A stretch of DNA of 64,000 nucleotides from positions 660,768-724,767 of the forward strand of contig CP055307.1 of NCBI GenBank assembly GCA_013374835.1, written 5' to 3'. Below the pieces are notes generated by a model that saw only the letters and a list, made by a program, of their open reading frames with translations, was not told the origin of the DNA and searched no databases. This document shows, piece by piece, positions 7,439 to 58,403 of this stretch. Positions within the stretch are counted from its first letter, which is position 1; every line of letters starts with the position of its first letter. The DNA comes from Candidatus Woesebacteria bacterium (lineage in GTDB: Bacteria; Patescibacteriota; Microgenomatia; UBA8517). Position numbers and translations under genes: made by a program.

Positions 7439-8791
7439 ATGCAGGTAGATCCGAGTATATTCAGAGGTTATGACATAAGGGGAATTTACCCGAGCAGCAT
7501 AAACGAAAAAGTAGCTTACGCTATTGGCCAAGCATATGTTGAATTGATAAAGCCCGAAGGCGAAATTCTGGTGGGCCGAGACGTAAGATTACATTCCAAC
7601 GACTTGGCGGAAAGTTTAATAAAAGGTATCACGGATAGCGGGGTTGATGTTTTGGATTCGGGTTTAATATCTACTGATATGCTTTATTTCGGTGTAGGAA
7701 ATTATAAAACGGCTGGAGGAATTCAAGTGACAGCATCTCACAATCCACCTGAGTGGCACGGATTTAAGATGGTTAAGGCGGACTCTGTTGCAATGACTTT
7801 TGAGTCAGGTATTGAGGATGTTAAAAAACTTGTAGAGAAGGGCTGCTTAAAAAAATCAGAGAAAGATGGAAATCGTCATAAATTAGAAATATGGGATGAG
7901 TATTCTAAATATATTCTTGGTTGGATAAAGCCTGAGATCATTAAACCTTTTAAGGTGGTTGTAAATGCTAATTTCGGGTTGGCTGGGCAAATTTTTAAAA
8001 GGATTGTAGATATTGGAAATTTACCTATTGAAATTGTCCCGTTGAATACCGAGCCTGATGGAACTTTTCCAAAGGGACGTCCCGATCCTTTTGTCCCTGA
8101 AAATAGAGTTGAATTTGTGAAATTGGTTAAAGATTCCAGTAGCGATTTTGGGATTGCTTGGGATGCTGACGCAGATAGGGTATTTTTTTGTGATGAAAAA
8201 GGCGCTTTTGTTGAACCTTACTATCTAAATACTGTTCTAATAAAGAGCATGTTAAAAAAATATCCGGGAGAAAAAGTTATATATGATCCTAGATACACAT
8301 GGGCATTAATTGATGCGATAAAAGAATCCGGAGGACAACCTGTTATTAGCAAAGTCGGCCACAGTTATATAAAAGAGAAAATGAGAGCCGAGAATGCTTT
8401 GTTTGCAGCAGAATCGAGCGGGCATACTTATTACAGAGATTATTGGTATGCAGATTGTGGCATGATACCAGCAATGCAAATAATGGAGTATCTTTCGGTA
8501 CACAATGAAAAGCTTTCCAATTTGGTTCGTGAGGTTATGAGTAAATATTATATTTCCGGTGAGATTAACAGTAAAGTGTCGGATGTAAAAGCGGTTTTAC
8601 AAAAAATAAAATCCAAGTATTCGGACGGAGAAATCTCAGAACTTGATGGCGTATCTGTTGAATACGATGACTTTAGATTTACCGTCAGGCCTTCAAATAC
8701 GGAACCTTTACTCAGATTGACACTTGAAGCAAAGTCCAAGGAGTTAATGGAACAAAAAAGAGATGAAGTTCTTGCTTTTATTAAAGGATAA
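7439..8791 (+). CDS. phosphomannomutase/phosphoglucomutase (alpha-D-phosphohexomutase family)
   Basis: FRGYDIRGIY N-terminus; active-site TASHNP; 450 aa four-domain layout. Confidence 0.8.
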   Translation: MQVDPSIFRGYDIRGIYPSSINEKVAYAIGQAYVELIKPEGEILVGRDVRLHSNDLAESLIKGITDSGVDVLDSGLISTDMLYFGVGNYKTAGGIQVTASHNPPEWHGFKMVKADSVAMTFESGIEDVKKLVEKGCLKKSEKDGNRHKLEIWDEYSKYILGWIKPEIIKPFKVVVNANFGLAGQIFKRIVDIGNLPIEIVPLNTEPDGTFPKGRPDPFVPENRVEFVKLVKDSSSDFGIAWDADADRVFFCDEKGAFVEPYYLNTVLIKSMLKKYPGEKVIYDPRYTWALIDAIKESGGQPVISKVGHSYIKEKMRAENALFAAESSGHTYYRDYWYADCGMIPAMQIMEYLSVHNEKLSNLVREVMSKYYISGEINSKVSDVKAVLQKIKSKYSDGEISELDGVSVEYDDFRFTVRPSNTEPLLRLTLEAKSKELMEQKRDEVLAFIKG

Positions 8792-9856
8792 ATGAATTTA
8801 GATCTACCCGAAAATTACGAAAAAAATAGTGAAACTTTTAATTCCATACGGATGCTTGCCGATCAAATCGAACAGGCATGGAATGAGACAGAACATTCCT
8901 CTATGCCTCAAAGCTGTACTCTGGCAAGACAAGTTATTGTTTGCGGAATGGGTGGGTCCTCTTTGGCGGGTAGATTTATTAAATATTTATTCAGACAAAG
9001 TTTACGTTCTCCGCTTGAAATATGCAGCGGATACTCTTTACCTAATTATGCGGGCCCGGGCTCGCTGGTGATTGTTTGTTCTTATTCAGGAAACACAGAG
9101 GAAACGCTATATGCTGCTTATGAAGCTCGTCAAAAAAATACCCAAATTTACGGTATTACCACCGGAGGTAAATTAAAGGAATTTTTGGAAAGATATAATT
9201 ATCCATCTTATATATTTGAGCCAAAATTTAATCCTTCGGGACAACCAAGATTTGGCATCGGATATATGATTGGTGCAACGCTTTCTATTCTTTCAAAATG
9301 TGAGTTTATATCATTTAGTGAGGAGATAATGTACGAAGCTATAAAAGTTGTAAGACGAAGCCTTAATGATTTTACTATTGATAAGGATGAGTATACGAAT
9401 CTTGCGAAGAAAACCGCTCGTGAACTTTATGGGAAAGCTATTTCAATAATTGCTAGCGAGCATTTGCTCGGCGCTTCATATATATTTAAAAACCAACTGA
9501 ACGAAACTGCTAAAACAATGTCTTATTTATACGAAATACCCGAGCTTAATCATCACTTAATGGAAGGACTTAAAAATCCCGCGCTAATTAAGGAGCATGT
9601 CAAGTTTTTTTTTGTTGAGTCCGAGTTATACAACGACCAAGTAAAAAGGCGCTATCCTATAACCAAAGAGGTTATTGATAAAAATGATATTGATTGGATC
9701 GTTTATAAACCTTTAACTGATACAAAAATTTTTCAAGCTTTTGAATTTATTTCATTTGCCTCTTTTGTTTCGGCTTATCTTTCTTTGCTTTATGGAGAAA
9801 ATCCGATTGAGATACCTTGGGTAGATTTTTTTAAATCGGCGCTTGAAAAACGATAA
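8792..9856 (+). CDS. bifunctional phosphoglucose/phosphomannose isomerase (SIS domain, archaeal-type PGI/PMI)
   Basis: Two SIS-domain signatures (VIVCGMGGSSLAG; LVIVCSYSGNTEET); 354 aa; adjacent to PMM/PGM. Confidence 0.65.
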   Translation: MNLDLPENYEKNSETFNSIRMLADQIEQAWNETEHSSMPQSCTLARQVIVCGMGGSSLAGRFIKYLFRQSLRSPLEICSGYSLPNYAGPGSLVIVCSYSGNTEETLYAAYEARQKNTQIYGITTGGKLKEFLERYNYPSYIFEPKFNPSGQPRFGIGYMIGATLSILSKCEFISFSEEIMYEAIKVVRRSLNDFTIDKDEYTNLAKKTARELYGKAISIIASEHLLGASYIFKNQLNETAKTMSYLYEIPELNHHLMEGLKNPALIKEHVKFFFVESELYNDQVKRRYPITKEVIDKNDIDWIVYKPLTDTKIFQAFEFISFASFVSAYLSLLYGENPIEIPWVDFFKSALEKR

Positions 9857-40982: not shown

Positions 40983-42524
40983 ATGAAATACATAGCCTAT
41001 TGCAGAAAATCAACAGATGAGAAGGAGAAACAAATTCTCTCCATTGATCAGCAAATCTATGAGTTAAAGCAGTTTGCGCAGAGAGAAAACTTGGAGATAG
41101 TTGAATTTTTGACAGAGGCGCAAACTGCCAAAGTTCCTGGACGGAAAGTATTTTCAAACTTTATTAGCCTAGTTGAAAAAGGTGTTGCACAAGGAATTAT
41201 TGCTTGGCACCCCGACAGACTTGCCAGGAACTCGATAGGTGGTGGAAAAATTATTTATCTTCTCGATGAAGGAAAACTTCAATCTCTAAAATTTCCCACT
41301 TTCTGGTTTGAAAATACTCCCCAGGGCAGATTTATGCTTAATATCGCTTTTGGCCAAGCTAAGTATTATGTTGATAATCTAAGTGAGAATGTAAAACGAG
41401 GTTTATACCACAAATTAAGACATGGTGGCTGGCCATCGCTTGCCCCTATCGGCTACTTAAATGACAGAAACTTGCGTTCTGTCATTGTTCACCCCAAAGA
41501 GGGAAAGTTGGTAAAACTTGCTTTTCTGAAATTCTCCTCCGGCGAATTTAGCAGTATGAAAGATATTCAAACTTTCTTTTTCAAAAACAAGTTGTTTAAA
41601 GCTGGCGAAAAACCCATGCACTACAATCAAATTCGTGCAATTCTCACAAACAGCTTTTATTATGGCCTCATGCTTTACCATGGCGAAACGTATGAGGGTA
41701 GTCACAAGCCTTTAATTAGCAAAAAGACTTTTGACAAAGCTCAAGAAATTTTGGAGAAAAAGTACAGCAAGAAACCCCACAAGCACGAATTTGATTTCAC
41801 TGGTTTTATTACGTGCAAAGAATGCGGTTCGTTTGTAACTGCCGAGACACACAAAAAGTTCTATCGAAAAACGAACCGCAATGCTACCTATATTTACTAC
41901 CGCTGTGTCAAGAAAAAGGGAATTTGTTCGCAAAAGTACCTTCGTGAAGAAAAAGTTGAAAAACAGCTCAGAGAAATTGTGGAGAGTGTTTCTTTAAATG
42001 AAAAATGGCAAGCCAAAATGCTTGAACTTTTGGCGAAAGATGAGATTAAAGAAAAGGAAACAATTAAAAGTGAGCTTCGCTCACTCACAGTTTCTCTGGA
42101 AGCTGTCGAGGAAAAACTAGACAAACTACTTGAAGGCTACTTAGAAGAAATAGTTGACACCGAAGATTATCAAGCTAAGAAAAAAGATTTTCTCGACAAA
42201 AAGAAAGTTTTGAAAGAGAAAATATCAGAAGTTAAGCAAAAAGGAAGTGCTTGGCTCGAACCGATGAGAGAATTCATCAATGAGGCCGCAGAAGCGGCCA
42301 AAATCGCGCGCAAAAAAAATAATTGCGATGAACTTTCAGTCATCGCAAAAAAAGTCGGCTCGAACTTCTATATGATGAATAAACGGATTTATTTTGAGCC
42401 CTGCGCACCGCATATTGCGCTCGCCGCGCGGCCTGTCGCGGCTCGCGCATACCCCACCGCTACCATTTTGTGCCGAGGGTGGGACTCGAACCCACACGTC
42501 CGATTATCGAACACAGGATTTTAA
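40983..42524 (+). CDS. large serine recombinase (resolvase catalytic domain, recombinase domain, Zn-ribbon, coiled-coil)
   Basis: N-terminal YCRKSTDEKEKQILSIDQQ (catalytic Ser), AWHPDRLARN, recombinase domain, CKECGSFVTAETHKKFYRK...YYRCVKKKGICS zinc ribbon, long coiled-coil; the ORF as drawn reads through repeat B and into tRNA-Leu, so the true C-terminus is probably upstream of ~42400. Confidence 0.8.
   Translation: MKYIAYCRKSTDEKEKQILSIDQQIYELKQFAQRENLEIVEFLTEAQTAKVPGRKVFSNFISLVEKGVAQGIIAWHPDRLARNSIGGGKIIYLLDEGKLQSLKFPTFWFENTPQGRFMLNIAFGQAKYYVDNLSENVKRGLYHKLRHGGWPSLAPIGYLNDRNLRSVIVHPKEGKLVKLAFLKFSSGEFSSMKDIQTFFFKNKLFKAGEKPMHYNQIRAILTNSFYYGLMLYHGETYEGSHKPLISKKTFDKAQEILEKKYSKKPHKHEFDFTGFITCKECGSFVTAETHKKFYRKTNRNATYIYYRCVKKKGICSQKYLREEKVEKQLREIVESVSLNEKWQAKMLELLAKDEIKEKETIKSELRSLTVSLEAVEEKLDKLLEGYLEEIVDTEDYQAKKKDFLDKKKVLKEKISEVKQKGSAWLEPMREFINEAAEAAKIARKKNNCDELSVIAKKVGSNFYMMNKRIYFEPCAPHIALAARPVAARAYPTATILCRGWDSNPHVRLSNTGF
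42385..42470 (-). repeat. GC-rich imperfect-palindrome repeat, copy B (inverted), directly abutting the 3' end of tRNA-Leu(TAA)
   Basis: Reverse complement of 42406-42450 matches copy C core with 2 mismatches over 45 nt. Confidence 0.75.
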
Positions 42525-42556
42525 GTCCTGAGCGTCTACCATTCCGCCACCTCGGC
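42471..42556 (-). tRNA. tRNA-Leu (anticodon TAA), long variable arm
   Basis: Reverse complement GCCGAGGTGGCGGAATGGTAGACGCTCAGGACTTAAAATCCTGTGTTCGATAATCGGACGTGTGGGTTCGAGTCCCACCCTCGGCA; class II cloverleaf. Confidence 0.85.
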
Positions 42557-45265: not shown

Positions 45266-45808
45266 TCAAAAGTTTTTTGATCTTTTGAATAAAAGCATAA
45301 AAAGACTGATCATTACAAAAGCCGTTGCTGCCATTAGAGGTATTGTAATGTAACCAAAATTCATTACGAATTTTTCTGCACATGAGATCGAAAAGCCGAC
45401 TGCTGAGCATGAAATATTCGGTACTAAACCTAATTGAAGCAAATAATGGTATATTGACAGCGGCGCACCAAGGAGCGAAAGAGTAAGAATATAATCCGTG
45501 ATTATCTTTTCGTTTTTCCAGAGGGCGACGGCAAGCAAAGGCACTTGGGGATACATCAGAATTCTTTGATACCAGCAGAGAATGCACGGCGTAAAACCTG
45601 CAATCTCGGAATAATACAGGCTCCCTGATGTTGCCATAAGAGCAACGATAAAGGAAAAGATATATGAATTTTTTGAAAAAAAGCTAAAGATAAAAGATCT
45701 TTTTTTAAACGGTAAAAAGATAAGAAGAAGCAAAAAAATAATAGTTAGTTGGCCTAAAATCGTAAGATAAGATAAAAATCGGCTTATGTGTGCAGGATCC
45801 ATATTCAA
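45266..45808 (-). CDS. disulfide bond formation protein B-like (DsbB/BdbC family)
   Basis: Two periplasmic Cys pairs (PCILCW; CSAVGFSISC) in a 4-TM protein of 180 aa. Confidence 0.5.
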   Translation of the reverse strand: MNMDPAHISRFLSYLTILGQLTIIFLLLLIFLPFKKRSFIFSFFSKNSYIFSFIVALMATSGSLYYSEIAGFTPCILCWYQRILMYPQVPLLAVALWKNEKIITDYILTLSLLGAPLSIYHYLLQLGLVPNISCSAVGFSISCAEKFVMNFGYITIPLMAATAFVMISLFMLLFKRSKNF

Positions 45809-46449
45809 TTGAGTTCTTTGTCGATTAGAATTCTAAAACCTTCTATATCTTTTGGATTCGGTACTATCCTACCATTTAGGGCAAAGGTTGGTGTTCCTCT
45901 GACACCTATTTCGAGGGAATTTTTTCTACTTTCTTCTACTTTCTCTATTAGTTGAGAATCTTCGTAGTCAGATAAAAACTTGTCTTTATCAATACCGATT
46001 TCTTCTGCGTATTGGGCAAAGAGATTTTTTGGGTCGCTTTCTGATGCCCATTCAGTTTGTTTTTCAAATAAAATGTCGTACATTTCCCAGAATTTATCCT
46101 GCCTCCCTGCGGCTTCTGCCGAAACAGCCGCGTTGAATGCATTTTTGTGTATATTTGTCAGCGGAAAGTGTCTTACTACAAACAAAATCCTATCTTGATA
46201 CTCGTCAAGAACAGACTTTACTATTGGATAGTATGATCTGCACGCTGGACATTGGAAATCAAGATATTCTATAAGAACTACACTTGAATCTCTTTTTCCT
46301 ATTGTCCAATCCTCCTCATATGTACCAAGAGAATTATCCGACAAATTTTCATTGCCGGTAGCAGGGCGTGAAAGCTTAAAAAGTGCAAACCCTAAAACAA
46401 AGATTGCAAGCAAAACGAATATTTTAACCAAAATATTGCTATTTTTCAT
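45805..46449 (-). CDS. DsbA/BdbD-like thiol-disulfide oxidoreductase, membrane-anchored
   Basis: Thioredoxin-fold CPAC active site (DFQCPACRSY); N-terminal TM; 214 aa; translationally coupled to the DsbB-like gene. Confidence 0.6.
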   Translation of the reverse strand: MKNSNILVKIFVLLAIFVLGFALFKLSRPATGNENLSDNSLGTYEEDWTIGKRDSSVVLIEYLDFQCPACRSYYPIVKSVLDEYQDRILFVVRHFPLTNIHKNAFNAAVSAEAAGRQDKFWEMYDILFEKQTEWASESDPKNLFAQYAEEIGIDKDKFLSDYEDSQLIEKVEESRKNSLEIGVRGTPTFALNGRIVPNPKDIEGFRILIDKELN

Positions 46450-48267: not shown

Positions 48268-48404
48268 AGAATGGCTTCTTAGCAAAAAGAACTCAAAAAA
48301 GTAAGTTTCAATAAAAAAAATTTGCTATAATTATTAAGTACTTGCGGGTATAGTTGAAAGGTCCAACGACTCCCTTCCAAGGAGTAAATCGGGGTTCGAT
48401 TCCC
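48268..48404 (+). repeat. 137-bp direct repeat, left copy: tRNA-Gly(TCC) upstream region with TGCTATAAT extended -10, plus tRNA 5' portion through the T-loop
   Basis: ~135/137 identical to 51848-51984 (offset exactly 3580 bp). Confidence 0.85.
48344..48404 (+). pseudogene. truncated tRNA-Gly(TCC): 5' end to T-loop only, 3' T-stem and acceptor strand replaced
   Basis: Identical to the intact tRNA-Gly at 51924-51984, then diverges (TCACTGGGTACCATGG) and cannot close the acceptor stem. Confidence 0.75.
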
Positions 48405-48420
48405 TCACTGGGTACCATGG

Positions 48421-48490
48421 CCCGTGCTCAGTGGCTAGAGTGCTTCGTTTATATCGAAGAAGTCGTAGGTTCAAATTTTATCACCTTCAC
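48421..48490 (+). pseudogene. tRNA-like fragment: canonical acceptor 5' strand, D-arm and anticodon arm (loop TTTATAT, anticodon TAT), but no pairing 3' acceptor strand
   Basis: GGCCCGTGCTCAGTGGCTAGAGTGCTTCGTTTATATCGAAG...; the 3' part does not pair with the 5' acceptor strand. Confidence 0.4.
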
Positions 48491-48764
48491 GAAGTAGAAT
48501 GATGTAACCTCTGCACAGAATCCCGTTGAACGGACGAATACACAATGCAGTTTGACTTTTAAAGTATCCTGTAATATACTTTTTTGTACTTATGAGAATT
48601 TCATATGACGACCTATATTTATTGTATGTTGGCTTTTTTGGGATTGTGGTTTTAGCCAATATCGCCGCGATCCTTCTGAATAGACTTGTGGTTTTGTATT
48701 TTAAATTATTTGATCTACTTCTTAGGTTACCCAAAATTACTATAGCTTTATTTAACTTTAACAA

Positions 48765-49400
48765 ATGAAACTAATTAAAAAATTAATTTCTTTATCCCTT
48801 GTTGGAGTAGTGCTAATTTTGTGCTTAATGATAAGCGTGGTTGTATATGCAAATAGCGCTGAAATTTTTTCTAAAAAGGATATAGTATTTGCTAATGCCT
48901 TGACTTCATACCCAGAGTTACCAATTGCAGAAAAACATCTTTTTGTTTTACCCAACAGCGATCCAAATTTATCTGGAAATTTGATTGGCGATTTTGGAAA
49001 ACCAATCTCGCTTAATATTCCCTCAATAAGAAGAAAACTTGAGATAGTACCTGCAATAGTTAGAGAGAACACTCTTCTGGTTAGACCAAATAATGGACAC
49101 TTTTTGGTTCGTTTTGATGAAAAAGCTGTAAAAGACTTTCTAATTTATTTAAATAAATCATGGAGAACATTGCCTTCTCCTGAGGATATAAAAAGGGATA
49201 CAAATTTATATATCGATACGAACAGAAAGTGGAGATATGTATTTAAAATAGAAGAAATTGTCAGCCTTACGGAAGACAGTATTTTTGTGATCCCCGACAA
49301 CAAAACTACAAATTTAATTTTAATAATTAATTATCCTCTTGATAGAAAATTTTTAATCGTTAGAGCGGGATATAGAACCGTTGTACCAATAGAAAAATAA
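48765..49400 (+). CDS. membrane-anchored hypothetical protein (first gene of cassette)
   Basis: 211 aa; N-terminal TM; no catalytic motif recognised. Confidence 0.4.
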   Translation: MKLIKKLISLSLVGVVLILCLMISVVVYANSAEIFSKKDIVFANALTSYPELPIAEKHLFVLPNSDPNLSGNLIGDFGKPISLNIPSIRRKLEIVPAIVRENTLLVRPNNGHFLVRFDEKAVKDFLIYLNKSWRTLPSPEDIKRDTNLYIDTNRKWRYVFKIEEIVSLTEDSIFVIPDNKTTNLILIINYPLDRKFLIVRAGYRTVVPIEK

Positions 49401-49404
49401 TAAA

Positions 49405-50622
49405 ATGGAGTGGTTTATTACACTGAGAAATATAGCATTTTTATTTGCTACATTAATGCTTATAAAGTATTTTGTATTTTTGGTGATTGCTCCTTTTTAT
49501 ACTGTTAAGGAAAAAATTAGGTTTGAACGTATCAAGAGAAGAATGTCAGTTCCGTATAAGCCGTTGGTCTCAATTGTTATTCCTGCGTGGAACGAAGAGA
49601 TTGGGATCAAAAAAAGCATTCTCTCACTTGTTACAAATACTTATAAGAAGATTGAAATAATCGTAATTAATGATGGCTCCACTGATAGGACCGAAGAAGC
49701 TGTTAAAAGTATTAAAGATAGAAGGTTAAGATACTTTAAAAAAGAAAATGGGGGCAAGGGGACTGCTCTTAACTTAGGGGTAAACAAAGCAAAGGGAGAA
49801 ATAATTGTTACAATGGATGCTGATTCTGCTTTTGATAAACAAGCTATAGAAAATCTGATTAAATATTTTAGGGATGACTCAATCATGGCTGTGGTTGGTA
49901 ATGTAAAAATAGCCGGAGGGAAAGGCCTAATTGCCTATATTCAAAAGTTAGAATATAAATTTGGATTCTATTTCAAGAGGGCTCATGCTGTAATGGGAGC
50001 CGAGTACATATTTGGTGGAGCTTGCAGTGCATTTCGGAGAGAAGTTTTTGAGAAATTAGGGGGATTTGATATAGACAATAAAACTGAAGACATAGAGATG
50101 TCGATGAGAATGCGATTCAATGGAATGAAGTGTACGTTTGCATCTGATGTTATCTGTTACACAGAAGGAGCTAGCAGTATTATGGGTCTAGCCAATCAAA
50201 GACTAAGGTGGAAAAAGGGAAGATTTGATACTTTTATAAAATACAGAAGACTATTTATGTCGCTTGACAGACGACATAATAAGTTTTTGAGTTGGTTTGT
50301 TCTTCCTTATGCATTACTATCTGAGCTACAACTTTTATTTGAGCCAATTGCCCTGACCTTGTTACTTGCATACAGTTTTATATCGGGAGACTATTTGTCT
50401 CTGGCTATTGGAAGTTTGTTTATTATGATAATTTATTTTGTTGAATCTTTTTGGGTTGATGGAATTAAACCTTGGTTTTGGTTAACTTTCTTTTTTACAT
50501 GGCCGCTTTTTTATTTTTTGGTATGGATTGAATATTTAGCTTTAATAAAAGGATTTTTTATGATATTAAGGGGGGACGATATAAAATGGCAAAGATGGAA
50601 TAGAGTAGGAGTATCAATATGA
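49405..50622 (+). CDS. processive family-2 glycosyltransferase (PgaC/IcaA/NodC/cellulose-synthase-like beta-glycan synthase)
   Basis: N-terminal TM; GT-A motifs VSIVIPAWNEE, DGSTDRT, TMDADS; QRLRWKKG (QxxRW processivity motif); C-terminal TM helices; 405 aa. Confidence 0.75.
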   Translation: MEWFITLRNIAFLFATLMLIKYFVFLVIAPFYTVKEKIRFERIKRRMSVPYKPLVSIVIPAWNEEIGIKKSILSLVTNTYKKIEIIVINDGSTDRTEEAVKSIKDRRLRYFKKENGGKGTALNLGVNKAKGEIIVTMDADSAFDKQAIENLIKYFRDDSIMAVVGNVKIAGGKGLIAYIQKLEYKFGFYFKRAHAVMGAEYIFGGACSAFRREVFEKLGGFDIDNKTEDIEMSMRMRFNGMKCTFASDVICYTEGASSIMGLANQRLRWKKGRFDTFIKYRRLFMSLDRRHNKFLSWFVLPYALLSELQLLFEPIALTLLLAYSFISGDYLSLAIGSLFIMIIYFVESFWVDGIKPWFWLTFFFTWPLFYFLVWIEYLALIKGFFMILRGDDIKWQRWNRVGVSI

Positions 50623-51821
50623 AAAAAATATCTATAATTATTATTACTATTGTTCTACTTTTGATGTGTCTGGCTACTGTTGATGTTACCTATAATGCAT
50701 TAACTGGGGATAGTTTATATCTTAAGTTAAAAAGCAGGATCGATGAGCCGAGGGAAATCGAAAGAATTGGCAATTTTATAATTGGAGATAAGTGTAGCAA
50801 TGAAAAGGCTATTGAATTTCCAAAAGACTTAGCTGAGCCGCATCTTAAGAAACTTAGTCAATATCAAGATATTTGTGGTTCAAAAGTAACAAACTCCATG
50901 ATGGTTTTTACTGACATGCCAAAGGACGCTATTATTGCTCGGGAAAATGCCAAGAAACTTGCAGAAACTTTAAAACAATTTAACAAGTATGGGATAAAAC
51001 CGACTGTGATTGTTGAACCTATTTCTGAATGGGGTTTAATTGATTTTCAAGAATTTGGAACAGGTTTTTATGATAACTGGATTTTCACCTATTTTAATGA
51101 ACTCAAAAGACAGGGGGTAACTGATGAGATGATGGGGACTTGGGTTCCATTTCCAGAAGCAAATTTACCTTATTGGAATCACGCAAATGCGCAACCTGCT
51201 GACTTTGCTGGAATTGTTAATAGATATCTAAAAATTTTAAAGCAGCAGTTTCCTGCTGCAGAAGGTAGCATACTACTTAACTCTGCTACCTATGAAACTG
51301 ACGACTTTGAATGGACAAACGGAGAATATGTAAGCCTGAGACAGTATGTTGTTGGACTTGATAAAAATTTAATAGATTCTGTTGGGCTTCAAGGATTTCC
51401 TTGGGTTTCCCCCAAAGAGGCTACAAGTAATGCTGTGTTTAACCCAAGCGAATTTTTGAACCACTCATTGATAGCTGAAGCAGCTGACATTCTTGGGGTT
51501 AAAGACATTTGGCTTAATACTGGAACCTTTGGGGCTAAATATACTATTGATCCAGAAAATACGGTATATATATCAGCTGATAAACGAAAGGATTTACTTA
51601 ATGGGATATTGTCGGAGGCATTTAATTTAAAAAACCTTGGATATAATGTAACTATCAATATTTTCGCTCAAGACAAGTCTCTTCTTCCTGAAGCAACAGA
51701 CTGGAGTTATTTGCCTAATAGTTTTTCAAGAGATGAGCAAGCCCAAGTTGTCTTTGTTGAATTCGCTTCAAAAGCAAATAACAACAAGATAGGCTTATCA
51801 TTGTTTGATAGACAAGAGTAG
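50619..51821 (+). CDS. secreted/membrane-anchored hypothetical protein, possible polysaccharide hydrolase/modifying partner of the GT2 synthase
   Basis: 400 aa; N-terminal signal/TM; translationally coupled (4-nt overlap) to the GT2 gene; no motif recognised with confidence. Confidence 0.35.
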   Translation: MKKISIIIITIVLLLMCLATVDVTYNALTGDSLYLKLKSRIDEPREIERIGNFIIGDKCSNEKAIEFPKDLAEPHLKKLSQYQDICGSKVTNSMMVFTDMPKDAIIARENAKKLAETLKQFNKYGIKPTVIVEPISEWGLIDFQEFGTGFYDNWIFTYFNELKRQGVTDEMMGTWVPFPEANLPYWNHANAQPADFAGIVNRYLKILKQQFPAAEGSILLNSATYETDDFEWTNGEYVSLRQYVVGLDKNLIDSVGLQGFPWVSPKEATSNAVFNPSEFLNHSLIAEAADILGVKDIWLNTGTFGAKYTIDPENTVYISADKRKDLLNGILSEAFNLKNLGYNVTINIFAQDKSLLPEATDWSYLPNSFSRDEQAQVVFVEFASKANNNKIGLSLFDRQE

Positions 51822-51847: not shown

Positions 51848-51984
51848 AGAATGGCTTCTTAGCAAAAAGAACTCAAAAAAATAAGTTTCAATAAAGAAAA
51901 TTTGCTATAATTATTAAGTACTTGCGGGTATAGTTGAAAGGTCCAACGACTCCCTTCCAAGGAGTAAATCGGGGTTCGATTCCC
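51848..51984 (+). repeat. 137-bp direct repeat, right copy (leads into the intact tRNA-Gly)
   Basis: See left copy. Confidence 0.85.
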
Positions 51985-51993
51985 CGTACCCGC
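51924..51993 (+). tRNA. tRNA-Gly (anticodon TCC), intact
   Basis: GCGGGTATAGTTGAAAGGTCCAACGACTCCCTTCCAAGGAGTAAATCGGGGTTCGATTCCCCGTACCCGCT; all stems close. Confidence 0.85.
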
Positions 51994-52102
51994 TCCCAAA
52001 GTGGAAATCTATCTATAAATTGTTAGCCTAGCTAGATAGTATTGAAAAATCGCTCAAAGATAAATTTTCAAAAAATGGTGTTATGATGATAAAAAAGAGT
52101 TT

Positions 52103-54376
52103 TTGTGTTTGATGGGAAAAATAACCCTTAAAATTTTATTTGTTTCTCTCTTAATTTCCTCTTGGCTTTTTGCTGGATGGCCGAGAATTTGGCAAAAGCC
52201 ACCAATTCCACCGGCTATTCGTAAAGCTAAGGCAGCGCAGGTAACGATTGATAATTCGATACACACCACTTCTACAAGTCACCTCGATAGTTCACCATCT
52301 ACAGTGTTTATTTCAGAAACTAATGGTTATACTTTTTATCGCGATAGCGGAGGTCAATGTGTTTACAGCAAAACCACAAATGGCGGGACAAGCTGGGGAA
52401 CAGCAGTGACTGTTGATTCTCAGACTGACTGTTTGCAAATTGCTGTCTGGTATGATCGCTGGACACCGGGGGATAATACTGGAACGTTAATCCATTTTGT
52501 GACTTTTGATTCTGGTGATGATGATATTTGGTATGGCTATTTAGATATCTCAAACAATGACTCACTTGCAACTCCAATTAATATCACATCTGGATTAGGT
52601 TATTCGGGCACTCTAGCTGTTGGCACAAACCACACTACCATCACCAAAGGCACGGACGGCGTGCTCTATGCGGCTGTGTCGGATGCTAATGGTACGGGCA
52701 ATATAATGGCCCGTTGTAGCTCAACCTGCACCACAGCAACCAACTGGGCAGTGTCTCAACCAGCATCATGGACTGCTGGTAATGACTATTTAATCTTGGT
52801 ACCTATGCTCTCTGACAAAATAATGCTTCTCTGGTGGGATATTTCATTAGGATCAAATGATATTAAATATTCTATCTGGGATGGTTCTTCTTGGTCGACT
52901 TTTGCTGCCATTGATACAGCTTTAGATAATGCTATTTATGACGCATCATGGGGTGCTGCGATTGACCCATCAACTGGAGATGTGTATTTGGCTTACGCTG
53001 CAAACGCGACTACTTTAGGAACGGACGACAGTATTCGGGTAAAAAAATACACGAGTAGCTGGTCATCCTTGACCGATGTAGTAACCAATAGCGCCTGTGC
53101 CGGCGTTTCAAACTGCGGCATTACCGGAGTTAAAATAGCGATGGACACGACGAGCGGCGACTTGTATGTCCTTTATTCGGCACAGTCAACTCCTGGCACC
53201 GCCACAACTGCTAATGTCTATTTCAAAAAATCAACCGACGGCGGCTCAACCTGGAGTTCAGAATTGGGTCCGGTCTATTCCACAAACGACGATATTTACG
53301 GCGCGCGCTTGAGCTTGTCCGATTCCGCGGGCATCCAGAGAATTTACGCTACTTGGTACGCGGCAACACCGGACGATTTATTCGGCCGGCCGATTGCGCC
53401 CTTAACGTTCAACCAATCTGCGTATCGGTTTTTTAATAATTCAGACTCAACTGATGTTGGTACACCTTTGGCGGTACAGAACACAGAGGCAACTTTGGGC
53501 TCGACCAACGCGGCGTTTCGCTTGAGGATTCTCTTGCATGTCGGAGTTTCTGACTTGTTTACGAGTGAACAGAGTTTCAAACTCCAATTTGCTCAACAAT
53601 CGGGAACGTGCGACACCGGATTTTCCGGAGAGACCTACGCTGATGTTACGACCTCAACCGTGATTGCCTACAACGACAACGCCACGCCTGATGACGGCGA
53701 CAACTTGACTACGAACACCAACGACCCGACACACGACGTTGATACCATTGTCAATCAAACTTACGAAGAATTAAATAATTTTACCAACTCCGTGGCGGCT
53801 ATTAACTCGGGTCAGGACGGCAAATGGGATTTTTCTCTCAAAGACAATAACGCTCCAGCCGAAACCACTTATTGTTTGCGGGTGGTCAAATCCGACGGCA
53901 CGGTTCTGGATACTTACACCGTAATTCCGCAAGTTACCACCGCTAGTTCGGCAACAATTTCTGTTTCTGTTTCCGATGGAAACGTTGCTTATGGGATTAT
54001 TCCTAAGGACACCTCAAAAACTACTCTTGCTTCTGATATGCCACCTTCAGGGGATATGCAAACGGTTAGTTATGATACCAATGTAACGGTTAATATCAAC
54101 ATTAAGGGTAGCGACGCTTCGGGTGGGGGTTGTACTTGGGTATTGGCGGGTACCAATGGTAACGATCAATATGTTCATCAATTTTGCAACGCCACCGATA
54201 ATAATTGTTCAAGTCCGCCAACAAATTATACCGCTTTAACAAGCGGTTATCAGACATTAAAAAGCGGAGTTTCTGGTCAGGGAACAGTGGATTTCCATTT
54301 GCGAATAACTATGCCCACCGAATCAAGTTGTTATGGCGAACAATCAATTAATGTGACTATTCAAGCAGCTCAATAA
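52103..54376 (+). CDS. large secreted BNR/Asp-box repeat (sialidase-like beta-propeller) protein with a C-terminal WxL-like domain
   Basis: N-terminal signal/TM; multiple SxDxGxTW Asp-box motifs (TTNGGTSWG, STDGGSTWS); C-terminal ~150 aa homologous to ORF 55580-56125; 757 aa; middle third markedly GC-rich. Confidence 0.6.
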   Translation: MCLMGKITLKILFVSLLISSWLFAGWPRIWQKPPIPPAIRKAKAAQVTIDNSIHTTSTSHLDSSPSTVFISETNGYTFYRDSGGQCVYSKTTNGGTSWGTAVTVDSQTDCLQIAVWYDRWTPGDNTGTLIHFVTFDSGDDDIWYGYLDISNNDSLATPINITSGLGYSGTLAVGTNHTTITKGTDGVLYAAVSDANGTGNIMARCSSTCTTATNWAVSQPASWTAGNDYLILVPMLSDKIMLLWWDISLGSNDIKYSIWDGSSWSTFAAIDTALDNAIYDASWGAAIDPSTGDVYLAYAANATTLGTDDSIRVKKYTSSWSSLTDVVTNSACAGVSNCGITGVKIAMDTTSGDLYVLYSAQSTPGTATTANVYFKKSTDGGSTWSSELGPVYSTNDDIYGARLSLSDSAGIQRIYATWYAATPDDLFGRPIAPLTFNQSAYRFFNNSDSTDVGTPLAVQNTEATLGSTNAAFRLRILLHVGVSDLFTSEQSFKLQFAQQSGTCDTGFSGETYADVTTSTVIAYNDNATPDDGDNLTTNTNDPTHDVDTIVNQTYEELNNFTNSVAAINSGQDGKWDFSLKDNNAPAETTYCLRVVKSDGTVLDTYTVIPQVTTASSATISVSVSDGNVAYGIIPKDTSKTTLASDMPPSGDMQTVSYDTNVTVNINIKGSDASGGGCTWVLAGTNGNDQYVHQFCNATDNNCSSPPTNYTALTSGYQTLKSGVSGQGTVDFHLRITMPTESSCYGEQSINVTIQAAQ

Positions 54377-54389
54377 ATTTTTTATGACT

Positions 54390-55504
54390 TGACATGCACA
54401 GGATCAGATACATATTCGACATTGAGTAAGCATGGCAAGATCCACTGGGGTAAGCATGAAATCTGAGTTTGTAATGGGTAAAATCAAGAATTCCAAGGAG
54501 GTGATGAACTTGATTTCCCATCTGAGAAGATTTGATCAAAGTGAGGTGGCCCAGGAAAGACTAAGAATAATTAAGTATTATGCCAAACATGGAGAGGTTG
54601 CCACAAAAGAGGCCTTTGGAGTAGATCGCAAGCTTATCTTCACCTGGAAGAAAAGAGTACTAGAGAGAAAGAGTATCCAGGGGTTAGTTCCAGACTCCAC
54701 AGCTCCAAGGGGGGTAAGAAGGTCAGTAGTGGATCCTAAAATTGTTGATTATATTAAATCCCAAAGAGAGTTTGTCCCCAGAATGAGCAAGAAGAAGCTT
54801 AAACCCTTACTTGATGCATACTGCAGAGAAAATAATCTCCTAACAGTATCAGAGGCTACCATTGGGAGGATTATCTCAAGAAACAATCTATTTTATTACA
54901 AAACAGGCAGAGTATACCACAATCCAGCCTCTAAATGGGCTCAAAACAAGACTAAGAGCAAGAAGAACAGAATTAAATATGCACCCAAACCAGAAACTCT
55001 GGGATACATCCAAGCTGATACTGTGGAGAAAATCATTGATGGCATTAGGTGGTATATGTACCAGGCAATTGATGTGAAGGGAAAGTCTGCCCTTTCCCTG
55101 ACCTACAAACACTTAAATTCAGTTAACACTGTGGACTTCTTCAAGAAATTCCAAACACTTATTCCCTACAAAATCCACACAGTCCAGACTGACAATGGTA
55201 AAGAGTTTCTCAAACAATTCAGGGTTTACCTAGAAAAACAAAACATCAAACACATTTTTATATACCCCAGAATGTCCAAGATCCAGGGGGTGGTAGAGCG
55301 CTTCAACAGGACCATCCAGGAAGATTTTATTGACCCCAACCTCCACCTTATCTACAACCAGAAAGCTTACAATCAACGTCTTGCAAAGTACCTGATATAC
55401 TACAACTGCCAGAGAGTACATGAATCCCTAGGTAATATGACACCAACAGACTATCTCATCCAGGAAGGAGGTATGTCGAATATGTTACGATCCTGTACAT
55501 GACA
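54390..55504 (+). mobile_element. insertion sequence (~1.1 kb) with single DDE transposase and 32-33-bp imperfect terminal inverted repeats; IS481/IS30-like
   Basis: IRL TGACATGCACAGGATCAGATACATATTCGACAT (54390-54422) vs reverse complement of IRR TGTCATGTACAGGATCGTAACATATTCGACAT (55473-55504), ~28/33 matches; possible 4-bp ATGA flanking duplication. Confidence 0.75.
54432..55502 (+). CDS. DDE transposase (rve/integrase-core with N-terminal HTH)
   Basis: D (YIQADTVEK), D (VQTDNGKEF), E (ERFNRTIQEDF) triad; C-terminal YNCQRVHESLGNMTP; 356 aa. Confidence 0.8.
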   Translation: MARSTGVSMKSEFVMGKIKNSKEVMNLISHLRRFDQSEVAQERLRIIKYYAKHGEVATKEAFGVDRKLIFTWKKRVLERKSIQGLVPDSTAPRGVRRSVVDPKIVDYIKSQREFVPRMSKKKLKPLLDAYCRENNLLTVSEATIGRIISRNNLFYYKTGRVYHNPASKWAQNKTKSKKNRIKYAPKPETLGYIQADTVEKIIDGIRWYMYQAIDVKGKSALSLTYKHLNSVNTVDFFKKFQTLIPYKIHTVQTDNGKEFLKQFRVYLEKQNIKHIFIYPRMSKIQGVVERFNRTIQEDFIDPNLHLIYNQKAYNQRLAKYLIYYNCQRVHESLGNMTPTDYLIQEGGMSNMLRSCT

Positions 55505-55579
55505 ATGAAAAAAATATTTTAGTAAAGTTAAAAATAGCTAATATGAATAAAAATATGGATACCAAGGAAGCAAAATATT

Positions 55580-56125
55580 TTGAGAGGGGGTGAAGATGTG
55601 TTTAAAAGAATTTTAATATCTTTTGCTTTGATGATTCTTTTGGGTGGTAATTTTTGGTTTGAAGTAATGGCAGCTGACACCGGCGATGTGACGGCAACGG
55701 TAACAGTACAAAATGTAGCAATTACAGTTTCCGACGGTGCCATTGCCTATGGCACTTTAGCTGCTGGAGGAACCAGAAGTACATTACCAAGCGAGGCTAA
55801 TGACATGCAAGTTGCCACCAATACCGGTAATGTTCAAGAGGATTTTAACATTAAAGGATATAACGTTTCTTCTGGCTGTAGTTGGACACTTGGCGCAACC
55901 CAAGACTCTGAACAGTATTTTCATAAATTTTGTAATGATACGGCCAATGATTGTTCAACACCACCAACTAATTATAATGCCTTAACTACAAATTACCAAA
56001 CTCTAAGTTCAGCTGTACCGACTAGTGGTGCTAGAGATTTTCAATTACAGATTGGTGTTCCATCTTCAACTTCTTGTACATCTGAAGCAACCATAACAGT
56101 TACAGTTCAAGCTGTTGCTAGTTAA
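55580..56125 (+). CDS. secreted protein consisting of a WxL-like beta-sandwich domain (paralog of the BNR protein C-terminus)
   Basis: Signal peptide; ~40% identity to 54000-54376 translation (VSDG.IAYG ... NIKG...GCSWTL ... DQY.H.FCN.T.N.CS.PPTNY.ALT..YQTL); 181 aa. Confidence 0.5.
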   Translation: MRGGEDVFKRILISFALMILLGGNFWFEVMAADTGDVTATVTVQNVAITVSDGAIAYGTLAAGGTRSTLPSEANDMQVATNTGNVQEDFNIKGYNVSSGCSWTLGATQDSEQYFHKFCNDTANDCSTPPTNYNALTTNYQTLSSAVPTSGARDFQLQIGVPSSTSCTSEATITVTVQAVAS

Positions 56126-56165
56126 GATTATTGCCAAGATTTTATATGAGTGATAGAGTTTTATT

Positions 56166-56780
56166 ATGAGAAAGACTTTATTTTTTGTGATTTTTTTAAC
56201 TTTTTTCGTTTTTCCACTTCCGGTTTTTTCCAATCTTGGAGTAGGTGTTGCTACCGGAAAAATTGTGGTTGAAGACAAACTCAGACCAGGGATGATTTAT
56301 AATCTTCCTCCGTTGACAGTATTAAACACAGGCGACGAGGAAGCAGAATATGAGGCGGGTGTGGCTTATCACGAGAAGCAATCAGAACTTCAGCCGAATG
56401 AAAAATGGTTTGATTTTTCTCCAAAAAAATTCTTTCTTAAACCAGGTGAAAGTCAGAAAGTAGAAATCAAATTAAATTTACCAGTTAGAGCTGAACCCGG
56501 CGATTATTTCGCTTATTTGGAGGGTAAACCATTGAAAAAATCAGAATCAGGTAAATCAACAATAGGAATAGCTGCAGCGGCTAAGCTTTACTTTACTGTT
56601 TTACCGGCTAACCCAATTTTGGGAGCTTATTATAAAGCAGTGTCTCTTTGGAAAATTAACCAGCCCTGGTCCGCACGTTTTGCGATAATTATCGGAGTAG
56701 CTATTCTTTATTCCTTACTAAATAGATTCTTAGGATTTCAAATCAGCTTTGGCAAAAAAAAAGAAAAAAAGAATGAATGA
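56166..56780 (+). CDS. cell-surface protein with N-terminal signal peptide, Ig/PapD-like middle and C-terminal TM anchor with basic tail (CscA/DUF916-like architecture)
   Basis: 204 aa; signal; C-terminal TM IIIGVAILYSLL followed by KKKEKKNE. Confidence 0.35.
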   Translation: MRKTLFFVIFLTFFVFPLPVFSNLGVGVATGKIVVEDKLRPGMIYNLPPLTVLNTGDEEAEYEAGVAYHEKQSELQPNEKWFDFSPKKFFLKPGESQKVEIKLNLPVRAEPGDYFAYLEGKPLKKSESGKSTIGIAAAAKLYFTVLPANPILGAYYKAVSLWKINQPWSARFAIIIGVAILYSLLNRFLGFQISFGKKKEKKNE

Positions 56781-57409
56781 AATGGGTAGGATCATTTTTT
56801 TTTATACTTATTCTCGCCTTGCTTTTTAAAGGTTTTACCTTTGTTCAGGGGATTTCTTTTCAAGATTTAGAGGCAACCATTAAAATTAGTGTTTGTGGCG
56901 ACGGAAAAATTGAAGGCGATGAGAATTGCGAGGGAGATAATTTAAATAACCAAACTTGTGAAAGTTTAGGCTATGGTTCTGGTACCTTAACTTGCGATAT
57001 TGCCTGCAGTTTTGATACTTACGGCTGCTTACCCGCTCCAACAACTACTCCTACACCATTTTCTTCTACCCATCAAACTATTCCCCAATCTGACACAACC
57101 ACGTCTAGTTTAATTTCAAGTCTGGCACCAACACCCTTTTTTTATTCTACTCCGAAACGAACCGTCTCCCTTCCGCAGGCAATAATTCCTTTTGACACTA
57201 ATTGTGATAATATAATTGAAATAAGTGAACTTTTTGAAAGCGTCAGAGATTGGGTTGATAGCTGGATAATTAAAACGAGTAAATCAATTATTCGAAGAGA
57301 AACCAGCAAAAAAACAAGATGTGGTTTAATTCAAGATTGTGATTTAAACCGTGATAATGAGTGTAATATAGTCGATTTTTCAATACTTATGTATTACGTA
57401 AAGATATAA
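56777..57409 (+). CDS. secreted Cys-rich protein with Thr/Pro-rich linker and two dockerin-like Ca-binding-type repeats
   Basis: Signal peptide; CGDGKIEGDENCEGD; T/P/S linker; DTNCDNIIEISELFESVRDWV and DCDLNRDNECNIVDFSILMYYV resemble dockerin repeats; 210 aa. Confidence 0.35.
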   Translation: MKWVGSFFFILILALLFKGFTFVQGISFQDLEATIKISVCGDGKIEGDENCEGDNLNNQTCESLGYGSGTLTCDIACSFDTYGCLPAPTTTPTPFSSTHQTIPQSDTTTSSLISSLAPTPFFYSTPKRTVSLPQAIIPFDTNCDNIIEISELFESVRDWVDSWIIKTSKSIIRRETSKKTRCGLIQDCDLNRDNECNIVDFSILMYYVKI

Positions 57410-57410
57410 A

Positions 57411-58403
57411 ATGAAAAAACTCGCTATTTTCACTTTTCTTCTAAAGATTATTGGCTTTATTATTGCCTCTTGGTTTTTGGTTCATATCTTGTCTATTTTT
57501 GGAGTCTTTTTGGCATTAGCTTACCCTCTTTGGTATCTTTTTGGATTTAAGAGAATTCCTTGTTTATGGTGTCAAATTAAAAAGGCGCAATTTTGTACTT
57601 TTTCTCATAGTATTTTCGATTCTGGCTTGATTTTGGTTTTTACTTTGTTTTCTCTTGGCTTAGTTTTTGCTGAAGCAAAAATTATTTTCAAAATGGGTTT
57701 TCCACCAACAGCTAAAACAGTTTCTTTTGTTATTCCCACTAAGGGTCAATACCGATTAGGTGAAATCTTTCCAATGAAGATCGAAATATCTGGGGTTAAA
57801 ACCCCTATTAATGCCGTTCAAGCTGATTTGGGTTTTGACTCTAAAAAAATTCAGATTGTTGACATATCAACCAATGAATCGTTTGCAAATATATTTATTC
57901 AGAAAGAAATCAATAATGAAGTTGGTTATGCCCGATTGACCGGTGGTTTGCCAAATCCTGGTTTTTTTTCAGAACATGGAGTTTTTGGTTCTGTTTTTTT
58001 TAAGGGCATAACACCAGGAATTGTACAAATTAAGTTTCTGCCCTCTTCAATGGTTTTAGCAAATGACGGTCGAGGCAGTAATGTATTAAAGGATTTGGCA
58101 TCTGCTTCTTATTTGATTTTACCTGAAAAATTGTCTCAAGAGGAAGAAGAGATTCAAAAAAGTATTATTTTGAAACCAAATGTTTTGGGGGAAAGTAACG
58201 AAAACACTAAAATGAAGTTTTATGAAGAGAAAGGAGTTTTAGGAACGCAGGTTGTAAAAGACATCGAAAAAGTGAAAAAATTTGACTTAGGTAAAAAAAT
58301 ATTAGAAATTTTGGAAAAAATTGATCGGTTTATTTTATCTTTGTGGGCAAGGTTAACTGGATTAACGTCATCTTTTTTTACTTCGCGTTTCTACCGGGCA
58401 TAA
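57411..58403 (+). CDS. membrane protein with cohesin-like extracellular domain
   Basis: Three N-terminal TM helices, then VSFVIPTKGQYRLGEIFPMKIEISGVKTPINAVQADLGFDSKKIQIVDIS...GVFGSVFFKGITPGIVQIKF, a cohesin-like pattern; 330 aa. Confidence 0.35.
   Translation: MKKLAIFTFLLKIIGFIIASWFLVHILSIFGVFLALAYPLWYLFGFKRIPCLWCQIKKAQFCTFSHSIFDSGLILVFTLFSLGLVFAEAKIIFKMGFPPTAKTVSFVIPTKGQYRLGEIFPMKIEISGVKTPINAVQADLGFDSKKIQIVDISTNESFANIFIQKEINNEVGYARLTGGLPNPGFFSEHGVFGSVFFKGITPGIVQIKFLPSSMVLANDGRGSNVLKDLASASYLILPEKLSQEEEEIQKSIILKPNVLGESNENTKMKFYEEKGVLGTQVVKDIEKVKKFDLGKKILEILEKIDRFILSLWARLTGLTSSFFTSRFYRA

Follow-up and report, generated by a model that had tools for sequence, protein, structure and literature searches.

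By what machinery might an ultra-small bacterium assemble and export the glycans of its surface? The question is pertinent to the Patescibacteria, also known as the Candidate Phyla Radiation (CPR), which are ultra-small and mostly episymbiotic, and whose host attachment and envelope building are largely unknown. It is raised in concrete form by three adjacent genes, here termed A, B, and C, in a 64,000-nucleotide (nt) stretch of a Candidatus Woesebacteria genome (GenBank assembly GCA_013374835.1, contig CP055307.1, positions 660,768–724,767), hereafter called the window. A first-pass annotation, made from the letters of this stretch alone, had described the genes as a candidate module for the synthesis and export of a poly-β-glycan. 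The core of this proposal stands, carried by the motifs and topology of B, the hydrolase-like fold of C, and the conservation of the three genes as a unit, but its descriptions of A and C need to be changed. With moderate confidence, we read A-B-C as a Patescibacteria-specific, synthase-dependent exopolysaccharide system of a minimal, monoderm type, in which B would polymerize and export a chain that C would trim, with A as a non-catalytic partner.

A self-contained three-gene unit

All three genes lie on the forward strand, and their open reading frames (ORFs) span window positions 48765–51821, in agreement with the annotation. Gene A (48765–49400) encodes a 211-amino-acid (aa) protein with an N-terminal transmembrane (TM) helix and an extracytoplasmic β-barrel of the sortase fold, without the catalytic His-Cys-Arg triad. 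Its stop codon is separated by a gap of 4 nt from the start of gene B (49405–50622), which encodes a 405-aa membrane glycosyltransferase of family 2 (GT2) of the processive-synthase type, resembling PgaC and IcaA. Gene B in turn overlaps by 4 nt (ATGA) with gene C (50619–51821), whose 400-aa product combines an N-terminal membrane anchor with an extracytoplasmic (β/α)8 barrel like those of the clan GH-A glycoside hydrolases (GHs), and belongs to an undescribed Patescibacterial family. Hydropathy analysis finds one N-terminal hydrophobic segment in each of the two flanking proteins, at residues 8–26 of A and 4–22 of C.

That the three genes form one unit is argued by their conservation. A locus scan with two C-family peptide patterns, covering one genome per species (GTDB), produced 86 confirmed loci, and 80 of them were retained. 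The genes stand in the order A-B-C and overlap or abut in 33 of these 80 (type 1). Such recurrence in 33 independent genomes is far beyond chance, and it vindicates the earlier treatment of the trio as a single entity. The type 1 genomes are labeled Saccharibacteria/Saccharimonadia, Shapirobacteria, Moraniibacteriota, Dojkabacteria/WS6, Gracilibacteria, and unclassified Patescibacteria; a few short contigs bear non-CPR labels and are probably mis-binned. When the ORFs neighboring the cassette were clustered, no other gene proved to be conserved. A-B-C is a self-contained module in variable surroundings. Translation table 11 splits the C orthologue of one gracilibacterial locus (L060, 6001–7174) into two ORFs, of 156 and 205 aa. 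In Gracilibacteria, UGA stands for glycine (code 25), and the split is probably due to this reassignment rather than a sign of a pseudogene.

The membrane glycosyltransferase

Gene B supplies the most recognizable component of the cassette. Its product matches the Pfam model Glycos_transf_2 (PF00535) over residues 56–219 with an E-value of 4.2e-38 and PF13641 at 4.9e-28, confirming the family assignment; it also matches Glyco_transf_21 (3e-14). It carries the motifs NDGS (88–91), DADS (138–141), TED (226–228), and QRLRW (265–269), which include the DxD and QRLRW motifs singled out by the annotation. Motifs and TM segments alike are at least 95% conserved among 34 orthologues. By hydropathy, a single TM segment spans residues 10–28, with a stretch rich in Lys and Arg behind it, and three to four further TM segments lie in a C-terminal hydrophobic block (294–388), the N- and C-terminal arrangement of processive synthases that had been noted from the start. 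Pfam detects no PilZ or other extra domain, and the protein ends at residue 405.

Among named families, the closest relatives of B are the poly-N-acetylglucosamine (PNAG) synthases. Its best NCBIfam match is TIGR03937 (PgaC_IcaA) at 180.4 bits, about three times its score against the NodC or CelA models; the next family, the XrtG-associated GT2s, reaches 94 bits, roughly half of the PgaC_IcaA score. The likeness to polymer synthases claimed for the 405-aa protein thus holds. Escherichia coli BcsA aligns to residues 25–367 of B, through the QxxRW region and into the membrane part. The best sequence match in the PDB is a membrane GT2 from Pyrobaculum (6yv7), not a bacterial polymer synthase. Judged by these comparisons, B is best described as a processive-type GT2 nearest to the PNAG synthases, not as a demonstrable PgaC. 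Topology and homology also suggest that its TM helices may enclose a glycan channel.

A clan GH-A-like barrel without a family

The AlphaFold2 model of C, built from 53 sequences, has a predicted local distance difference test score of 89.6 and a predicted template-modeling score of 0.82. It shows a long N-terminal helix (residues 3–29), a poorly ordered linker, and an eight-stranded β/α barrel. In a fold search, this barrel was recognized as the clan GH-A glycoside hydrolase fold, with GH26 nearest and PslG also among the matches, and it can be superimposed on members of the clan. The first-pass annotation had proposed a secreted partner that hydrolyzes or modifies the polymer. The predicted structure gives a glycoside-hydrolase barrel and not an unrelated fold, and this half of the proposal is thereby strengthened; the other half needs correction, for the helix is predicted to be kept as a membrane anchor, and C would not be a cleaved, secreted protein.

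The fold has no counterpart at the level of sequence families. None of the 53 family members matches a Pfam GH model, even at E-values up to 10, and NCBIfam has no match for C, which by sequence belongs to no described family. Profile searches of the PDB returned nothing relevant, whether with the whole of C, where the sole match was a spurious one to Grainyhead, or with the region around its WVPFPEAN motif alone. A word-indexed search found 402 homologues, and all of the named ones are "hypothetical protein" entries from Patescibacteria (Moranbacteria, Saccharimonadia, and others). An exhaustive profile search among 1.84 billion proteins gave 279 cluster representatives at E ≤ 0.001; the best 150 of these 279 all score at least 224 bits, and no remote bridging match is found among the matches listed. 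From these searches, the family looks compact and restricted to Patescibacteria.

Conservation within the family is concentrated where one would expect it for an enzyme acting on sugars. In both paralogous clades taken together (316 members), conservation is 94% or higher for Glu133, Glu180, and Glu358, and likewise for Asn182, Gln258, Asn300, Arg323, and a set of Trp and Tyr residues. The aromatic residues sit at or just past the C-terminal ends of the strands, and the conserved set as a whole has the usual look of a carbohydrate-active site. In the clan GH-A layout, the acid/base Glu follows strand 4 as part of an Asn-Glu pair, and the nucleophile Glu follows strand 7. Strand counting with DSSP places Glu133 at the end of strand 2 of C, Glu180 after strand 3, and Glu358 after strand 7. 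The WVPFPEAN motif around Glu180 resembles the acid/base motif of GH1 enzymes (WMTFNEIN in E. coli BglA) and that of GH26. If the register is shifted by one β/α unit, Glu180 comes to lie on β-4 as the acid/base, but Asn300 (in LNTG) then occupies the nucleophile position. The strongest candidates for a catalytic pair are Glu180 and Glu358. C would accordingly be a hydrolase with a clan GH-A-like barrel of a new family, one that could become a new CAZy family.

The cassette-type clade of C has two invariant cysteines, Cys59 and Cys86, compatible with a disulfide outside the cytoplasm. Adjacent genes for DsbB-like and DsbA-like thioredoxin proteins lie on the reverse strand of the window at 45266–46449; such a pair would suit the invariant cysteines of C, and it is not part of the conserved cassette. 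CPR genomes commonly carry sortases as well as DsbA-like proteins, the latter in a related pairing with VKOR (PMC6744442).

A sortase that has lost its catalytic triad

The product of gene A initially appeared featureless. The annotation had described a single N-terminal TM segment and no recognizable motif; the TM segment is there (residues 8–26), but the second statement falls with the discovery of a sortase fold and of homology to sortases. Pfam and NCBIfam gave nothing usable for A, the Pfam Sortase model itself did not match, and a word-indexed homologue search recovered only two, and then seven, proteins. A sub-threshold hint of a class D sortase (E = 0.048) was later borne out by a fold search with a structure predicted from a seven-sequence alignment, which revealed the sortase β-barrel behind the N-terminal membrane anchor. 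The reach of the family became apparent when the genes adjoining C homologues were searched with phmmer, as a homologue of A lies directly upstream of the GT2 gene in 33 loci. The family evolves fast, with identities of 17–54%, and retains its TM helix, a WRT motif (133–135), Arg107, Tyr128, and a DTxxxWRY motif.

Independent evidence comes from loci that carry a paralogue of C and are described below. There, a protein of 195–240 aa matches Pfam Sortase (5.6e-14) and has the motifs LIYGH, LTIQTC, and NRQ. An hhalign comparison of the A family with this sortase cluster gave a probability of 98.1% and an E-value of 9.4e-14 over 120 columns. This alignment agrees with the fold match and marks A as homologous to bona fide sortases. 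All three catalytic columns of the merged alignment have been vacated in the A family. At the His position there is R, D, N, T, K, or S, and at the Arg position a gap or a hydrophobic residue. Of 34 sequences, 18 have Glu and 8 have Gln in the Cys column, where V and others make up the remainder and Asn189 stands in the window protein. The sole Cys of the latter sits in the TM helix. A is a membrane-anchored sortase descendant without a catalytic triad.

Paralogous loci and the nature of the polymer

The other 47 of the 80 loci (type 2) carry a paralogous C, here designated C′, and their neighborhoods bear on the chemistry of the product. A PgaC-like GT2 lies near C′ in 32 loci, a large deacetylase of carbohydrate esterase family 4 (CE4) with a CBM4_9 domain in 28, and a genuine sortase in 15; a MurA-like gene is often present, and a GH16 gene sometimes. 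All GT2s adjoining C-family genes score best against PgaC_IcaA, and in several loci, C stands without a neighboring GT2. In type 1, CE4 genes occur upstream of A-B-C in 3 of the 33 loci, directly in L006 and L010 and one gene further away in L028. Two CE4 proteins were scanned, one from each type, and matched HfsH best, followed by IcaB, PgaB, NodB, and PgdA. The C family is thus tied in two different arrangements to GT2s, sortase-fold proteins, and N-deacetylases, and for this reason, an N-acetylhexosamine polymer is proposed as the product.

Several variants of the type 2 arrangement recur. In the Saccharimonadales loci among L039–L080 (for example, L054 5698–11189 and L043 5953–13225), C′ is convergent with a CE4 protein of 700–900 aa bearing CBM4_9, followed by a genuine sortase, the PgaC-like GT2, and often the MurA-like gene. 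C′ has a GH16 gene immediately upstream in L051, L059, L065, and L080. A different pattern is seen in L046, L048, and L077 (for example, L046 3684–6984), where a 221-aa aquaporin/MIP-like gene directly precedes a PgaC-like GT2, scoring 234 bits against TIGR03937, and C′. L066, where the aquaporin-like gene is missing, shares with L046 and L077 a downstream gene for a GT2-GT4 fusion protein. The 221-aa protein was considered as a diverged A and rejected, given an hhalign probability of 0.1% and NPA motifs typical of an aquaporin/MIP channel.

A proposed mechanism and its relation to known systems

How might the three proteins work together? In the mechanism that we propose, B would reside in the cytoplasmic membrane and use a nucleotide sugar at the cytoplasmic face to polymerize a β-linked glycan, and its own TM helices would form the channel through which the glycan is threaded outward. 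The donor would most likely be UDP-N-acetylglucosamine (UDP-GlcNAc), leading to a PNAG-like or chitin-like product; the polymer is probably GlcNAc-based. Tethered to the outside of the same membrane, C would cut, trim, or release the nascent chain. A would be a non-catalytic extracytoplasmic partner of the synthase that guides or holds the chain, or links the machine to the wall, in a role functionally analogous to that of BcsB, PgaD, or IcaD.

This division of labor has clear precedents. In PgaABCD of E. coli and IcaADBC of Staphylococcus, as in the cassette, the synthase has two companions, a small membrane protein and an enzyme that processes glycans outside the cytoplasm. PgaC and IcaA are the best named relatives of B and share its motif set and TM layout, and CE4 deacetylases of the IcaB, PgaB, and HfsH type accompany relatives of the cassette. 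The differences are equally plain: B scores 180 bits where 422 are called for, neither cassette nor window has a CE4 gene, the single-pass sortase-fold A is unrelated to the small polytopic PgaD and IcaD, C is a clan GH-A barrel and not a GH153 enzyme, and the outer-membrane porin of the Pga system is missing, as expected for a monoderm. The cellulose-type systems, namely BcsA-BcsB-BcsZ, PssC/D/Z of Listeria, and CcsA/B/Z of clostridia, likewise combine a processive GT2 with a single-pass partner bearing an extracytoplasmic domain and with a glycanase, and BcsA aligns with most of B, as described above. In contrast to them, B lacks a PilZ domain and A lacks domains like those of BcsB, and A and C give no match to BcsB or GH8. 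Clostridial CcsZ is a GH5 enzyme and likewise belongs to clan GH-A, yet by sequence C is neither GH8 nor GH5.

Closest in fold are enzymes from which C is remote in sequence. It shares only about 13–15% identity with PslG, the GH39 enzyme of Pseudomonas aeruginosa, and lacks both the GH39 signature and the C-terminal β-sandwich; Psl, moreover, is not made by a GT2 synthase. Identity to GH26 enzymes (Lic26A, a β-1,3-xylanase, β-mannanases) is 10–13%, again with no Pfam GH26 match in the 53 members. A departs from the sortases (PF04203; classes A, D, and E) both in its replaced catalytic residues and in being conserved as the first gene of a glycan-synthase operon. The functional likeness of the cassette is to the Pga/Ica, Bcs, Pss, and Ccs systems and to operon hydrolases of the PslG type; it is a member of none. 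Literature searches returned no account of the cassette, no Cys-less sortase, no glycan synthase with a sortase-fold partner, and nothing relevant on PNAG-like systems in CPR.

Weighing the alternatives

Several observations weigh against the exopolysaccharide reading. B falls below the trusted cut-off of TIGR03937 (180.4 vs. 422.3 bits) and below every NCBIfam equivalog cut-off. Donors besides UDP-GlcNAc are conceivable, since the window encodes a phosphohexomutase and a phosphoglucose/phosphomannose isomerase (PGI/PMI), and the 64 kb contain neither a CE4 deacetylase nor a genuine sortase. By DSSP numbering, strand β-4 of C ends in Asn221-Ser222 instead of Asn-Glu, a departure from the canonical GH-A layout. 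When the C family was aligned to E. coli BglA with hhalign, WVPFPEAN was indeed placed on WMTFNEIN, but with a probability of 0.3%, which carries no statistical weight. The GH16 genes beside some C paralogues would also fit a degradative role, and the part assigned to A is purely conjectural.

What else, then, could the cassette be doing? B might be a membrane GT2 that glycosylates a lipid, making a diacylglycerol glycolipid or loading a sugar onto undecaprenyl phosphate, in which case the cassette would build or remodel a membrane glycolipid or a lipid-linked wall precursor. The Glyco_transf_21 match, the Pyrobaculum structure as nearest PDB entry, and the missed equivalog cut-offs are all compatible with such an activity. 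We nonetheless hold it to be decidedly improbable, given that B conserves the full set of D, DxD, TED, and QxxRW together with the C-terminal TM bundle, and that BcsA can be aligned with its residues 25–367. An obligatory extracytoplasmic partner resembling an endo-glycanase would, furthermore, make little sense for a lipid bearing one sugar. A different possibility starts from C, which could be mainly a scavenging or attack enzyme directed at polysaccharides of the host or the environment, as befits an episymbiont, with its linkage to B reflecting shared regulation. GH26-type and other GH-A folds are typical of degradative enzymes, some C paralogues keep company with GH16 glycanases and CBM4_9-bearing CE4 proteins, and others have no GT2 nearby. 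This is quite unlikely in our view, as C overlaps or abuts the GT2 gene in 33 genomes in which nothing else is conserved, and it is predicted to be tethered to the membrane, not released. To our knowledge, every well-studied synthase-dependent system is accompanied by a cognate hydrolase or lyase (BcsZ, PslG, PelA, PgaB, AlgL). BcsZ, PslG, CcsZ, PssZ, and the C-terminal domain of PgaB cut, trim, or release the chain in their own systems.

The remaining alternative concerns A. Its sortase scaffold might still bind a wall peptide, lipid II, or a sorting signal, and thereby attach polymer or machine, perhaps by a covalent bond, to peptidoglycan or a surface protein, making the product a wall-attached glycopolymer. 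A is membrane-anchored and truly homologous to sortases, the preponderance of Glu and Gln in its Cys column is a non-random replacement, and the sortase, MurA-like, and CE4 genes that cluster with C′ and a GT2 in the paralogous loci indicate a cell-envelope setting. Against this, His, Cys, and Arg have all been lost, the Glu is not universal, as the Asn of the window protein demonstrates, no sorting-signal substrate is encoded in the cassette, and no precedent was found in the literature. We judge a wall tether unlikely. The exopolysaccharide system with A as a non-catalytic synthase partner is the reading that we retain. The general logic of such a system is that of familiar biofilm and adhesion machinery; what sets the cassette apart are the degenerate sortase partner, the undescribed GH-A-like family, its conservation in several Patescibacterial classes, and the repeat-bounded unit described below. 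As a glycan module spread across several CPR classes, the cassette is a concrete candidate for the source of an adhesion or matrix polymer, and it brings to light two protein families that lack a database description, the GH-A-like barrel of C and the triad-less sortase derivative A. If a degenerate sortase does prove to be a working subunit of a polysaccharide synthase, this would be a new use of the sortase fold.

tRNA-Gly-derived repeats and possible mobility

In the Woesebacteria genome, a 137-nt direct repeat brackets the three genes exactly, defining a bounded unit of 3.58 kb. The left copy (48268–48404) and the right copy (51848–51984), both on the forward strand, differ by two mismatches, at repeat positions 34 and 49. 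Each consists of 76 nt of the sequence upstream of a tRNA-Gly, including a TGcTATAAT-like element, and the first 61 nt of tRNA-Gly(UCC). On the right, the copy runs on into an intact tRNA-Gly(UCC) on the same strand (51924–51996; called by ARAGORN; Rfam 65.7 bits). The left copy contributes to a chimeric pseudo-tRNA (48344–48413, forward strand; Rfam tRNA 33.5 bits, no ARAGORN call), in which the 5′ 61 nt of tRNA-Gly are joined at the T-arm to the 3′ end of another tRNA and the acceptor stem cannot pair. A second degenerate tRNA-like element, also on the forward strand, occupies 48426–48481 (Rfam 31.3 bits over the partial model 10–63, no ARAGORN call). Both degenerate elements lie between a tRNA-Leu/Leu/Val/Phe cluster and gene A. 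Also upstream of gene A is a promoter-like site on the forward strand, TTGACT-17-TATACT (48552–48580), which has 10 of 12 consensus matches and is weak evidence; promoter-like sites in the region are no more numerous than in shuffled sequence.

In L083, the contig of the closest relative, whose proteins are 70% identical, the cassette stands between a tRNA 3′ end on its upstream side and a tRNA 5′ end on its downstream side; the foreign 3′ end, comparable to that of the pseudo-tRNA, opens the contig. The other 33 cassette genomes have no flanking direct repeats of at least 16 nt, and tRNAs are close by in only three loci. The repeat structure is specific to this genome and not a general property of the cassette. 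Two metagenomic Logan contigs that carry the cassette, L081 and L082, come from SRR7008310 and SRR6825879, L081 being the one from SRR7008310. L082 (3,503 nt, or 30 + 3,443 + 30) is the plain unitig expected from the repeats. L081 measures 3,610 nt (3,580 + 30), it begins and ends with the same 30 nt, and its repeat copy, situated after the end of gene C, has the alleles of the left copy. This closed path of 3,580 bp could represent a circle or a tandem array, and assembly-graph simplification could give the same result.

Between the repeats, there is no recombinase or integrase; only A, B, and C are found. The nearest recombinase genes lie outside the unit, namely that of a large serine recombinase described below and that of an IS481-family transposase (54432–55502), which begins about 2.6 kb downstream of the cassette. 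Taken together, the arrangement in this genome points to a recent and possibly reversible insertion by recombination in the lineage. The annotation had further suggested that the module was acquired as an islet. With a G+C content of 0.35, the cassette is indistinguishable from most of the window (0.34–0.40), a compositional test gave no signal, and the module is restricted to Patescibacteria; it is an old module native to the group, not an import from outside. What survives of the islet is its local aspect, the bracketing by the tRNA-Gly-derived repeat, which suggests a simple route by which the module could move or amplify within small genomes. One may, finally, combine all the elements into a single Patescibacteria-specific surface-glycan machine: a catalytically dead sortase recruited as an obligatory extracytoplasmic synthase subunit or repurposed as a polymer-wall tether, a hydrolase as founder of a new family in clan GH-A whose catalytic layout is non-canonical, and, in this genome, their residence on an integrase-less 3.58-kb unit bounded by tRNA-Gly-derived repeats and able to circularize or amplify. 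We consider this composite unlikely.

Surroundings in the window

Other genes of the window are of interest in their own right. At 7439–9856, a phosphohexomutase, either a phosphomannomutase/phosphoglucomutase or an archaeal-type GlmM-like enzyme, is encoded beside the bifunctional PGI/PMI, a pair that bears on the nucleotide sugars that this reduced genome can make. Some 6 kb upstream of the cassette lies the gene of a large serine recombinase (40983–42524; Resolvase, Recombinase, and Zn_ribbon_recom domains), whose 3′ end overlaps a tRNA-Leu(UAA) on the opposite strand (42470–42556). Just downstream of the cassette, a 757-aa exported protein gives a weak match to a BNR/sialidase-like propeller. 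Its C-terminal 137 residues or so are 46% identical (E = 4e-38) to a 181-aa exported protein encoded at 55580–56125, with the insertion sequence (IS) transposase of the IS481 family separating their genes. Three further ORFs come next (204, 210, and 330 aa), of which the 330-aa one has a weak cohesin match, and the stretch from 52103 to 58403 may be a surface-structure or adhesin cluster interrupted by the IS.

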